Shown here: positions 13,371 through 62,765 of the stretch, piece after piece | Layout of the letters: each line of letters opens with the position of its first letter | How positions within the stretch are numbered: the stretch's first letter is position 1 | Origin: Hydrolagus affinis | Lineage: Eukaryota | DNA: 64,000 nt | Assembly: GCA_012026655.1 (NCBI GenBank) | Contig: JAAILG010000272.1 | Location: 1 to 64,000, forward strand | Direction of reading: 5' to 3' | The notes under the pieces: model-generated | Seen by the model: only the letters and a program-made list of their open reading frames with translations | Database searches by the model: none | Told to the model about the DNA's origin: nothing | Position numbers and translations under genes: made by a program

Positions 13371-14167
13371 TGTCTTGCTACAACAGCAATTAGACGATTG
13401 TGAGTTTTTAAGTCCATTCTTTAAGATAAAACTGAAAATGTAGCTTCTTCTGGAGGCTGTATTTCCACATTTACCTCTTTATCTCAACTCAAAACAAGTT
13501 ATTCAATCACTCGCCCCTGTTTATACAGGCGTATCTGATAGATAGAGGCATCTGACCGACACAGGTATTTTCAGCAGTCGTTAAACTTCAAACGATGGGG
13601 TGGAATTTGCAGTGTTTAATAATAACTCTCCTTTGTGACACAATCGGAGAACATTGAAAATGTAACCCAATCTCAGTCACCCCAAAAAAGATTCTACTCA
13701 GCAGGCACCTCTACAGTAATATACAGCAGCTATGCTATAGAGCCTACTGTACTGTATTGGACATTTCTGGTACATATTCACTAATGTCTAGTGTTAAGAT
13801 TGTATGCCAAAGGCTGGTTTTACTGCAATGGATTTATTAATTAATACACTGACTTTGACAGTCTCCACCAGCGAAGTCTGCAGATGCTAATTTAATTAAA
13901 TTACCGCAACCAGACAGACTTTGGACTCGAACCCTGACCATCTCCAAATCCAATCACTATCGCTGGGTTTCCCTTGATGTCAGAAATGGAGGGATCAGTA
14001 ATGTTACTTAAGCAGCATTACACAGAACAGCAGTACCGTACAACGCTAACACATTGATTTTTCCGAGGCTCAGCCAGGATAGCTAATTTCACGTGAAATG
14101 ACTATGTGGGCCGATACGATAGCTTATCTGTGGCAGCTCCATCCCACAAACAGTAATGAGATGAACA

Positions 14168-14345
14168 AAACTACAAAATACTACAGCCGCTGGGAATCGG
14201 AAACAACAACAAAAGTTGCTGGGGAAACTCAGCAGGTCAAGCAGCATCCATGGAGAGAGGAAAAGGAGTCAACGTTTCGGGTCTACAACCCTTCGTCAGG
14301 ATGCTGGTTGACCTGCTGAGTTTCCCCAGCAACTTTTGTTTTTGT
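14168..14345 (-). mobile_element. Short Penelope-like fold-back element with hammerhead ribozyme core, flanked by a 12-bp TSD
   Basis: The minus strand reads CTGACGAAGGGTTGTAGACCCGAAACGTTGAC...TCTCCATGGATGCTGCTTGACCTGCTGAGTTTCCCCAGCAAC, the Penelope terminal motif common in fish and sharks. It has 42-bp inverted arms (14208-14249 / 14299-14340), and ATGAGATGAACA is duplicated at 14156-14167 and 14346-14357. Confidence 0.75.
14271..14299 (-). ncRNA. Minimal hammerhead ribozyme core (CUGANGA...GAAA), probably degenerate
   Basis: CUGACGA-A-GGGU(UGUAG)ACCC-GAAA-CGUU: conserved core boxes, helix II and the palindromic ACGU helix III typical of Penelope minimal hammerheads. Canonical helix I is reduced to 2 bp. 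Confidence 0.6.
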
Positions 14346-16358
14346 ATGAGATGAACACTTCCTTTGGGGGTGAACGGAGGAAGAGTGAACGTTAGCCAGG
14401 AGATTAATACAATTCTGCTTCTCGGAGGTAAATCCATGAGATCTTTAACGGCCACGTAGACAGGGAGCTATGTTTAACATCTCACCCACAGGGTACCACC
14501 TCCAATAATGCAACACACATTCAATACCGCACTATGTGAACTAAAATCACACACTAACACTTTCAGTGAAGCAGAAATGCGAGTAACAGACAAGACAGAG
14601 ACGCAAGTTTGCAAATCTGATATAAAAACACTCATGATCTAACCAAATTATTACCATCGAAAGCTTCACTCTTCACCTTCAATAGCAATACAGCCTTCAC
14701 TGTCCTCAAAAGTCAGTCTTTTCACCTCAAATCCTGCTGTTCGAACCGACCGGCCCCTCCAGGCTTTGTGAGCTTTAAGCTTGTTGTGTGAAGCAAGCAT
14801 CTGACCTTTTTGTTGAGTTTCTAATGAAAATCAGCTTATAATGTAGCACAGACTGTGGCATTAACTGGGTATCCTGATCACAGCTGTAATTCAGGTGGCT
14901 GTGTGTGTGTGGTAATTGGAAATTGGGAGGAAGTTAAGAATTGTAAATCGCAGCTTGTTACTCTGGCTTACGGCTGTTTGATTGTTTGAGACACTCCCCG
15001 AGTACCAAAGCCCCCAGCAAGCACCTCAAATGAAAAAAAAATAGATCATTTTACACTTTGGCAAATCGAGAACGTTTGGCATTGTGGAAGGATCATGCAG
15101 AATATGAGTGGAGTGCGGTTGGGATGACTCCGAAATAATTTCACGGATCTTATAGTATTCAAAGCCAACTTCTCGATTGATTACGTTCAGTTAGTTTTCT
15201 CCGTGTGAGTCAGTCAATAGAACGAGGCTGAATCATGCTAAATTGAATAAATGCAATCAAGTGTTTTCCCAGAACAACTAATTTCTAGTGAAGAGAAAAA
15301 TCACAGAAACATCTGTTGTCTAGCATACATTAGCTTCACGCTGTGTCCGCTCTATATGGAACCCAGTACTGCACATGATTCATCGTTACGGTTTCCACCC
15401 CCCCTCCCCCACCCCCAACTCTGATCCACGGCACCTTGGGTTTTATAATAAATTAAATTTATGCTGTGAAATTGCTCGTCTGAGTTGCACTTCTCAAGTT
15501 TCTGCGGAACGGCAAACAGGAGCAAGGCAGAACTGTAATATTTAATAAGCTAGATTCAAATGTAAGCGGCTGGGCACTGATTAATCATCTGCGGTAAGTT
15601 TCGAATCAAGCAAAGTGTAAAACAAGGATAGGAGTTTCCATAATCCTTTGACAAAGCGCAGCGCTGACTAAAAGATGGTATTTCTGTTAAAGAACGTAGG
15701 TTTGCCAAACAACTCTGGACATTAAGTGTTATTACGCCCGCGGTTGAATTTTTGACCCTTCACGGTCAATCTCTCAGTCATCGCTTAAAGAAGTTTTAAA
15801 TCTGCATGCATCCCTGCATCAACCCTTTCTAATTAAACTTCAGCAAACTTGCAAAGACAGTCCCATCTCTTTTCAGAGAAACAGCGCCATGGGATCTGCC
15901 CAACGCAGAGGGGGTGGGATGGTGGCGGGATGAGCTTTAACCCACACGCTGATTCTAAGATGCTGTGCTAATTATCATACAAAAATGATAGCTTTCATAC
16001 CCGAGATAATCACTTTAATTAATTAAACTTTGCTTGGCCTTTGGAAAGCTGTGGAACTTTTTTAGGCATGTCATTACTTGTAAACAAGCTCGCGAGTTTA
16101 TTACACCATCCTGTAAAATAACTGAGAAAATTAATCACCGAGGGTCATATGAAACCAAACAGATCATTATCCACAGGATCCTTCGGGTAAACATTGTAAG
16201 TTACTGTATTTTATCCTCGGAGCACAACATTTTGCCATTGCTGCTGCAGAGAACCTAGACATAACTTAGTAAAGGCAAGTGAAAAGATAGGCGTAGGCTC
16301 GCGTGTGTTTCTGTGTTACTGTTCACTGATTTCTATGCAAATTGCTACAAGGAGTTAC

Positions 16359-60378: not shown

Positions 60379-62271
60379 TGATCCACTAGCTAACGAATGG
60401 TTAATGTGCTCCATTTACATAAGGATCAGGTTTACAAGTATAATCCAAAGCCTAACACGGATCTCTATTTCCTATGTATATGTAGGCCACTGATATTAAT
60501 ATTTACTCAAAGCCACACCAGGGAGCTTGTCCAACAGTGAAACAAGTCATTTACAATGGTAAATTTTACATTGTAAATCGCTTTGTCCCAAATGTAGACG
60601 GAAAGAGTTTGAGAACGCACCTCAGCGATCGTGGTTGAAACGTCTCAAAGCACTTCACAGGATTCTGATGTAAACTGCAGTGACTTGTGATGAATTTGAA
60701 AGAAATAGACCTTAAAGGCGAACGGATTGTGAGAAAAAAAAAGGAGGATGTCCCAAAGTGCTTCACATGATATCCATGGCAGAGTCGAGCTCTTGCTGTT
60801 GACAAGCACTCGAGGACGCTGACCCTGTTGAGGGGCACTGTGGAAATGCAAGTTGTTGTTGTTATATTGCAAAGTGGAGTGACTGTGTTTCGAAGGTGAA
60901 TGTGGCAGCCGATTCACACTTGCACACAGCAACGTCCCCAAATCAGCCGTGAAGTGACAGAACGGTTTCATTTGGGGGTTGAGGGGGTTTGGGTGGGGGC
61001 CGGAGGAGATTGGCATAGGAATGTCTGTTTAAAGAAAGCATCGCATGTGTCCTTTTTTTCTAAAGGAAAATATCAGCCATACTACTTTGCGACCAACTCA
61101 TTACTTCAAACATATATCAGTGTATTTTCTATTCCAGCTACAACCAAACATAGGACTTTCTCAGTAAGGTCTCATAGCGGGAGAGGGAATCTGTTTTGAT
61201 TCTGAAGCCCATTTCGCCATATACTCTACATGATTTTACTGGAACCATTAAATCCAAGGCATTCACTGAGTATAGCTTCTGGCATTTTGTTATTTATTCC
61301 TATTGAACGCCAATTGCAACCATTGCTAAAGTCACAAGGCTTTGCTGTTTTACCAAGCGGTAATTATCTTGACTCGTTTGTTGGATATATTTCCAGCAGT
61401 GTGTAGTAAAATACGAGAAATGATTTTGTCAACTGGGATAATTTATTCTCAAATATACTCCAGGGTGTAATAAAGCTGAAATATCAATAGCCACTTCCAA
61501 ATATTTTGTTATCGCTACACATCATTTAGCTGCTTAGGAGACAGCTGGAACTGTAAATAAGGAATCACACCCTTTCTCTTGGTCTGTTTAAGTGAAATTT
61601 GTATGCTGGGAGGATTTGGTTTTTAAAATGTGGGGTTTCCAAACATTTGCAGATTATTCACAATAGGATTACAAGATTAATATTAATGATTCAATTGCCG
61701 ACAGCAATGAAAGAATGCAAGATGCAACAGGACTCGATAACTTGACTCTCCATTGCATTTTAAACAAGGGCTTTTCTACTATTTTATCTTTCAACTTAGA
61801 AAAACCTCACACAATATTTAAACCTGTGCTACTCCTGGTTCTGAAAAAGTACATTGTGCCAGGCAAAGTATTCACTGGTAATGTAAAGATAAGGATTCCT
61901 CGTTGCATCTGAAATACAGTCCCTTTATACATAGATCCATTTTCCTCTCTCAGAGGTGGTTGAAAATAGAACCAGACAGTTTCAAAGCTGAAAACAGCAG
62001 TAAATTGCACCAGCAAGCAACGTCAGCATCCAGGATCAGAATTATTTTTGCAAAGTGAAAATTGCGTTTGGGGTTTTAAACCCTGAGTGCCACTTTGCCT
62101 GATAATTCTTACAAAAATTATTCCTGGAATTCAGTTTGGTTGCCCAGCTACAGACTTGCAAACATTTTCCAACAATACTGATAATAAAGAATTGAATTTG
62201 ACATAGCGCAATTACCGTGTCTTCGAACCAGAAACAGCCGTGAAGTGAACAACCAATTTTACTTGGAGGGT

Positions 62272-62439
62272 TGAAACAAAACCAGAAATCACTGGGAACG
62301 CTGCAGAACCCTAACAAAGAATCTGACGAAGGGTCATGACCCGAAACGTTGACCAACTTTCCTTTCTCCATAGATGATGCCTGACCTGCTGAGTGTTTTT
62401 GTTTCAGCAGGTCAGGCAGCGATTTCTGTTTTTGTTTCA
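62272..62439 (+). mobile_element. Second short Penelope-like element with hammerhead core and terminal inverted arms
   Basis: CTGACGAAGGGTCATGACCCGAAACGTTGACC at 62323-62354, followed by TTTCTCCATAGATGATGCCTGACCTGCTGAGT. Outer inverted repeat 62272-62294 / 62417-62439 (21/23). Inner perfect 15-bp inverted repeat 62378-62392 / 62404-62418. Confidence 0.7.
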
Positions 62440-62444
62440 GATTT

Positions 62445-62765
62445 ATTATACTGATAACCCTTGCAATTAATATAGCGCTTTCCATGTCTTCTAGACGTCT
62501 CCAAGCGCTTCACAGAATATACTGTCAAATGAATGGACTGTATATTTGTGGGAGAAACGCGGCAGCCAATTGCGCACAGCAGCGTCCTCCACAAACAGTC
62601 ATGGATTGAAATGGCCAATTTTATTATTGTGGGTTTTTTGGACGGATTATTATTAGGCGTGTGTGTGGAGTAAGGAAACTTGCCCAAGGATTTGCCCTGA
62701 CCTGCCTGGATTCGAACACAGGTCTCACGCTTGTAAGGCGAGCGCTCTAACCACTGAGCTACCGG
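62445..62765 (-). mobile_element. Deu-domain SINE, full length
   Basis: Tail, core and head on the minus strand, abutting the Penelope-like element. Confidence 0.92.

Follow-up and report, generated by a model that had tools for sequence, protein, structure and literature searches.

A 178-bp insert lies at positions 14168–14345 of the window (the whole 64-kb stretch of DNA that we analysed), flanked on the forward strand by a 12-bp TSD, ATGAGATGAACA, at 14156–14167 and 14346–14357. This 12-mer occurs exactly twice across the window, in agreement with the initial annotation of the locus; its last four nucleotides are also the native continuation of the inserted element, as seen in two longer copies (L202 and L216), and may have served as priming microhomology. 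The insert interrupts an older, decayed interspersed repeat on the forward strand (bounds approximate, 14030–14640), which we take to be DeuSINE-like. We took out the insert and one TSD by script and compared the rebuilt junction with 12 related repeat copies; 11 of them could be aligned across it, at low identity and without a shuffled control, which argues that the insert landed in an older repeat. That it did so in one insertion event is likewise supported. Both points had been part of the initial annotation.

The insert consists of two unequal arms placed head to head. Arm A (14168–14301, minus strand) is a 3′-end fragment of a Neptune-type Penelope-like element (PLE) and comprises pLTR and tail; it extends from a first start site, called A, as far as a hammerhead motif, at whose 5′ edge it stops. 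Its outermost ~33 nt (14168–14200, minus strand), the ‘tail’ between the two start sites of the family, are present on arm A only. Arm B (14299–14345, plus strand) is a 47-nt inverted copy of the same element end that begins at site B and carries neither tail nor hammerhead. The arms meet at an inversion seam that is unique in the genome, where they have a 3-nt GGA microhomology in common (14299–14301). A recount confirmed 41 complementary positions out of 42 between 14208–14249 and 14299–14340, and the predicted hairpin fold has an energy of −88 kcal/mol (z −11). Family positions are numbered below from the outer end, with site A as 1, which places the hammerhead at 99–135 and its predicted cut at 102|103.

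A minimal hammerhead predicted to be inactive in this copy

The minimal hammerhead proposed earlier for the minus strand was located at 14299–14267, with all of its conserved elements between 14299 and 14271. The core CUGACGA (14299–14293) and a bulged A (14292) are followed by a helix II in which 14291–14287 pair with 14283–14279, by GAAA (14278–14275) and by CGUU (14274–14271); the cleavage triplet is GUU, the predicted cut falls at 14271|14270, and the helix I 3′ strand occupies 14270–14267. The motif has the CUGANGA/GAAA core, helix II, palindromic 15.2–16.2 and NUH triplet of a minimal type I hammerhead. A closed helix I is missing from this copy, where the 5′ strand native to helix I (AGUC/AGUU) has given way to other sequence and two canonical pairs remain, just as the initial annotation had cautioned. 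In the predicted fold, C3 (14299), the first base of the inverted arm, is paired in the long stem. Since C3 is held in this stem and helix I is lost, we predict that this copy is inactive, supporting the further caveat that it may not cleave.

In the predicted fold of a native copy, helices I and II both form, and across native motifs helix II is paired in 90–97 of 100 copies and helix I in 58–63 of 63. An 11-copy alignment showed no covariation above shuffled controls, the copies inheriting their pairing from source elements. A hammerhead descriptor gave 82 matches against 1–2 in shuffled sequence, a circular comparison, as the loci had been picked for the element. An Rfam scan of 13800–14700, suggested by the initial annotation, returned no hammerhead match at E ≤ 10, just four weak matches below gathering score (to three miRNA models and one lncRNA model); because minimal hammerheads fall outside the Rfam models, a missing match is no evidence against the motif. 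Lunse et al. are said to have described, in 2017, dimeric cleavage of small PLE hammerheads.

The parent element

A genome search with the insert yielded 2389 first-look candidates, 40 of which were scored, and exact matching found a 31-mer 1385 times and a 25-mer 3579 times, with controls at 0. Short Penelope-like stubs, often in mirror-image form, thus number in the thousands, and the insert belongs to them. Copies reading past the hammerhead enter a broken ORF with a YIDD reverse transcriptase (RT), a C-x4-C-x2-C linker and GIY-YIG. Pfam scores for RT (RVT_1, E 0.062) and GIY-YIG (E 4e-4 and 7.5e-4) come from broken fragments and all lie below the Pfam cut-offs; besides these scores, we read the RT, linker and GIY-YIG motifs directly from the sequence, the linker (CQRRRCNTC) in L061, L077, L088 and L193. 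The first three C-terminal fragments gave no match in Pfam, and a fragment of the parent ORF gave none in a PDB sequence search.

An RT with a GIY-YIG at the C terminus is thus contiguous with the insert’s end sequence, as in EN+ PLEs, and these longer copies with the same end bear out the Penelope-like origin put forward in the initial annotation. The arm A sequence terminates long RT/GIY-YIG copies and also precedes the ORF, the pLTR standing after it in L060–L089 and before it in L202 and L216, where the end sequence continues from site A directly into an ATG and then the ORF. Judged by its sequence, the insert is pLTR-plus-tail sequence in the form of two head-to-head, 5′-truncated element ends. 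On its own, the linker motif suggests assignment to the Neptune clade, which is defined by a CX2-5CxxC linker between RT and C-terminal GIY-YIG (PMC8557442); our element resembles Neptune clade PLEs in having this linker upstream of GIY-YIG. Its parent is known from broken copies, no intact full-length parent having been recovered among the copies examined.

Several further features of individual copies were recorded. The ATG right after site A opens a 9-codon frame (L202:505–535 and L216:495–525, element sense), the stop of which lies within an acceptor-like polypyrimidine-AG just upstream of a second ATG; acceptor-like sites also occur near B and at the hammerhead edge, and no donor was identified in these two loci. 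At L192 and L195, several family copies lie within a few kilobases, including a long coding fragment beside separate fold-backs. The window holds a second copy, of an older subfamily, at 62270–62460, in which a short cDNA-sense arm is followed by a sense arm beginning at the hammerhead core; this is apparently another fold-back. L199 (G000:C283:53000–62000) is a 4.4-kb palindrome (99.4%) that duplicates one insertion (L140/L141), likely an assembly artefact.

The hairpin is likely rebuilt at each insertion

We drew two samples of the family with exact patterns lying outside the seam, so that sampling was blind to it. Sample 1 comprises 90 of the first 100 tail-pattern matches listed, less one mirror duplicate (n = 89); the first 100 mid-arm matches listed, which correspond to 83 insertions, form sample 2, with 28 insertions also in sample 1 and three long copies reclassified by hand. 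As the assembly is fragmented and both samples were taken from its largest contigs, they are biased towards less decayed copies. Sample 1 contained 51 fold-backs and 38 single arms; TSDs measured 11–16 bp in 53 of the 60 that were called, and 29 were uncalled. Fold-backs with one arm of just ~7–35 nt were seen at L107, L231, L271, L290 and L306.

The initial annotation had seen in the insert a self-contained, non-autonomous, retrozyme-like family; in such a family, or a MITE-like one, transcription and re-insertion would involve the 178-bp hairpin as a whole. Many copies do have the hairpin layout and both outer ends in common, about 18 of the best 30 genome matches being fold-backs of similar size, and pLTR-flanked sequences are reported to be mobilised in trans (Arkhipova 2013, PMC3846280). 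The seams, however, do not recur. A 21-mer across the seam of this insert has one exact match in the 1.11-Gb genome, against 175 for one native read-through variant, and the 79 fold-backs of the pooled samples have 74 distinct end pairs; four of the five repeated pairs differ in filler length and the fifth (L139/L157) in haplotype, so that no seam was found again at dispersed sites. Fold-back lengths in sample 1 spread from 71 to >500 nt. Inversion breakpoints thus differ from copy to copy while the outer ends are common, an outcome that, on the annotation’s own terms, refutes a family. Animal retrozymes, moreover, are head-to-tail tandem repeats (PMC7229834; bioRxiv 10.64898/2026.07.22.740005), whereas we found just one unit, arranged head to head and with a broken hammerhead, and no tandem units with complete ones. 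We consider transposition of the hairpin as a unit highly improbable. Non-recurring seams indicate instead that each insertion likely rebuilds the hairpin, from two copies of the element’s RNA that were started separately, and that no independent ribozyme mini-element has been spreading; the outer ends are probably shared because RT would start at two sites of the parent element, which are also used by long protein-coding copies.

Arms begin at two paired start sites

In sample 1, second arms begin at family position 29–40 in 42 of 51 fold-backs, and long coding copies terminate at A or at B. Sample 2 also held 51 fold-backs, of which 49 paired A with B and two paired A with an internal start, with no case of A+A or B+B, while its single arms started at A in 19 cases and at B in 13. 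Under independent starts, the probability of all fold-backs being A+B is ~3e-16. One A+A fold-back (L008) was present among 113 pooled pairs. The 49 A+B fold-backs carry, at one end, the 30–40-bp tail characteristic of inverted EN+ PLE insertions.

From these genomic scars, we consider, with a probability of roughly 0.8, that twin target-primed reverse transcription produced the insert in a single event and left head-to-head truncated ends between the 12-bp TSDs. Identity with the parent’s end, A+B start pairing, variable seams and a hotspot of arm ends are seen in the family itself, and we infer the remaining steps from them. The element’s endonuclease would make staggered nicks 11–16 bp apart; priming from one nick would occur at RNA site A, and priming from the other ~33 nt upstream, at site B. 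The two cDNAs would then be extended across the hammerhead, still uncleaved, towards the 5′ end of the RNA, would most often halt at or before the hammerhead’s 5′ edge, and would be joined through microhomology or a few filler bases. L1 twin priming likewise starts a cDNA from each of two target nicks and joins the two cDNAs through microhomology, with the second primer at variable internal sites. The L1 process produces inversion without duplication; here, the second start is fixed 33 nt away, so that an inverted duplication results.

A different origin, self-priming, has been proposed for PLE head-to-head palindromes (PMC3846280): cDNA or antisense RNA would fold back on itself and be extended into the inverted arm. 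The geometry of this copy fits, with its GGA microhomology and with arm B contained in arm A, and for this single copy, in which arm A exceeds arm B, snap-back copying may have occurred. Self-priming would also accommodate the 13 of 51 fold-backs in which the tailed arm is longer and the 11 in which the arms are about equal. In the other 27, however, the tail-less arm reaches more than 5 nt beyond the tailed one; there, arm B holds sequence absent from A, and A holds a tail absent from B, so A was not copied from B, nor B from A, and simple snap-back is excluded. Nor does self-priming account for the position of the second arm’s end, site B, which is a start for single-arm and long coding copies.

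Haplotypes of the arms agree in 71 of 87 typed pairs (within one subgroup, in 37 of 46 against 15.4 when shuffled), and this sharing by most pairs counts in favour of self-priming. Five of the 87 pairs, on the other hand, show differences at the two diagnostic sites together, well beyond a per-site background of 3.5%, which indicates that two RNAs are sometimes involved and counts against self-priming. For most arm pairs, a single RNA or a single source subfamily would suffice, and a minority would have used two RNAs; the agreement could instead reflect a single subfamily being active at a time, not a single RNA. Taken together, A+B pairing, arms that are not copies of each other and the distribution of arm ends favour twin target-priming on uncleaved RNA over self-priming, which we regard as unlikely.

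Among the fold-backs differing at both sites are four A+B cases (L019, L113, L157 and L140/L199), and in all four GG is found on the arm with the tail and AA on the arm without it. L253 is an L1-style inversion without duplication, its second arm starting internally (~408).

Arms stop at the 5′ edge of the hammerhead

In sample 1, 51 of 140 arm ends fall at 130–136, the hammerhead 5′ edge, and none at 101–104 around the predicted cut; the corresponding counts in sample 2 are 55 and 1 of 131. The per-base stop rate in sample 1 is 0.092 at 130–136 against about 0.003 at 40–98. Ends spread across 120–136, rising gradually from 120, and single arms peak most sharply at the edge (22 of 38). Among 30 copies of older subfamilies judged by eye, 17 have an arm stopping at the 5′ edge, eight read through and five stop earlier.

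If the hammerhead cut the template and so set the copy ends, its native motif, well paired as described above, would be suited to the task. Ends at 101–104 are nevertheless practically absent, and in PAc (Poseidon of Anolis) insertion is reported to be unaffected by hammerhead mutations, with no RNA-seq reads starting at the cut (PMC11167929). Template cutting is consequently an explanation to which we attach very little weight; the peak past the ribozyme, with almost no ends at the cut, indicates that the template was uncleaved and that copying halted just past the ribozyme.

Two candidate causes of this halt were rejected: fixed RT processivity, because single arms, whether they begin at A or at B, share the RNA position of their ends and not their length, and splicing onto a CCCCAG acceptor-like site, because the TSD lies within a few bases of the end and no upstream exon is shared. 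Our leading guess, at about even odds and the least certain step, is that transcription begins with the A of AGUU/AGUC, in what we assume to be an initiator-like context, and that copying runs off there. The ATG immediately behind site A also counts in favour of this guess. An extra cap-like C was found at 14 of 24 ends (p = 0.001) and at 10 of 20 once doubtful ends were dropped, several of them fitting microhomology or the TSD; a cap-templated C is thus suggestive and not robust. Counting against run-off, transcription in D. virilis starts 46 nt before a 75-nt intron (PMC2377424), the end of which maps to the helix I 5′ edge (PMC4209133), so that the start lies ~120 nt before the hammerhead 5′ edge, and in that species the edge serves as a splice acceptor and not as a start. 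A search of sequencing runs listed no RNA data set as a carrier of the sequence. In two single-cell poly(A) runs from one sample of another organism, reads covered both strands of the native end; their depth increased along the final ~135 nt, neither starts nor ends formed a peak, and no splice joint ended at the hammerhead edge; since read depth mirrors genomic copy number, these data are no test of the start site.

The hotspot alone could also arise, independently of the RNA 5′ end, if RT were stopped by a folded or protein-bound hammerhead, or if the interrupted palindrome CAG-NN-CTG and the repeat in helix I promoted joining. Microhomology is present at 20 of 47 scored seams, CTG/CAG at many of them, the ends climb gradually from position 120, and the PAc hammerhead is described as protein-assisted (PMC11167929), all of which would suit such a block or joining bias. 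Single arms, by contrast, need no arm-to-arm joining yet show the sharpest peak, and a structural block should, by our reasoning, act on the 3′ side of the fold (~99–110), where ends are rare. We give this explanation somewhat less than even odds.

Combining run-off with twin target-priming, we tentatively propose that a dimeric RT-endonuclease primes both nicked strands, each at its own fixed RNA site, that a single uncleaved RNA usually serves both and two RNAs sometimes do, and that copying runs off where a capped 5′ end coincides with the hammerhead’s first base. If this were true, the shark Neptune stubs would document the insertion mechanism of PLEs on a genome-wide scale, the inverted pLTR, the one-sided tail and the pLTR 5′ boundary would be explained together, the self-priming proposal would be replaced, and the hammerhead would be a 5′-terminal RNA element, not the cutter of the insertion template.

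Age and wider significance of the insertion

Contigs from organism A (two runs) span both junctions of the insertion and organism C covers the left junction; organism B reaches 28 nt into the insert’s right end, below the bar of the tool used. No contig joining the empty site was found among organisms A, B and C. Being shared across organisms, the insertion is old and not a recent mobile copy; this copy is inert.

The locus is ordinary in itself, as an inverted pLTR with a one-sided tail and a TSD is the textbook, already published layout of EN+ PLEs. PLEs are, however, the sister group of telomerase RTs, and the family is of modest significance for the formation of their inverted repeats and the role of their hammerheads, questions taken up in earlier work (PMC3846280, PMC8557442, PMC11167929). 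Thousands of short copies allow countable tests, of strict start pairing, of arms that are not copies, of occasional two-template events and of the lack of ribozyme-cut ends, making the family statistics a useful but indirect test of the insertion mechanism. We found no published statement of a paired A+B twin-priming model for PLEs in a search that most subscription literature lay outside.

Comparison with known systems

The hammerhead resembles the minimal type I hammerheads of metazoan PLEs (PMC4209133) in its core, the extra nucleotide before helix II, G10.1–C11.1 and the palindromic 15.2–16.2, and native copies also have their 4-bp helix I. It differs from them in a helix II of 5 bp instead of 7–8 and, in this copy, in lacking the helix I 5′ strand. 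That 2014 study describes opposite-strand hammerhead pairs 100–700 bp apart and single motifs from truncated PLEs, and the accessible part of its survey names no sharks.

Like animal non-LTR retrozymes (PMC7229834; bioRxiv 10.64898/2026.07.22.740005), the insert is non-coding, carries a type I hammerhead and is pLTR-related; retrozymes, though, give circular RNAs from their tandem units, whereas the insert is a one-off inverted stub.

A closer match is provided by EN+ PLE insertions (Adineta Pen2a_Av, PMC3846280; Craig 2021, PMC8557442), which combine head-to-head direct and inverted pLTRs, a 30–40-bp tail at one end, a TSD and 5′ truncation. Unlike these, our insert lacks an ORF between its repeats, as neither arm extends more than ~135 nt from its start, and TSDs in the family measure 11–16 bp against 8–10 bp in the Adineta examples.

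The nearest biochemical parallel is PAc, which in vitro cleaves and extends both strands, has two internal RT starts bounding the tail, uses uncleaved RNA and is predicted to form a dimer (PMC11167929). Its start site is reported to be no different between strands, so that strict A+B pairing has not yet been reproduced biochemically; neither this pairing nor the end hotspot is described for PAc in the main text of that paper. In PAc, the ORF begins inside the hammerhead and the starts lie within the ORF, whereas here the ATG follows site A.
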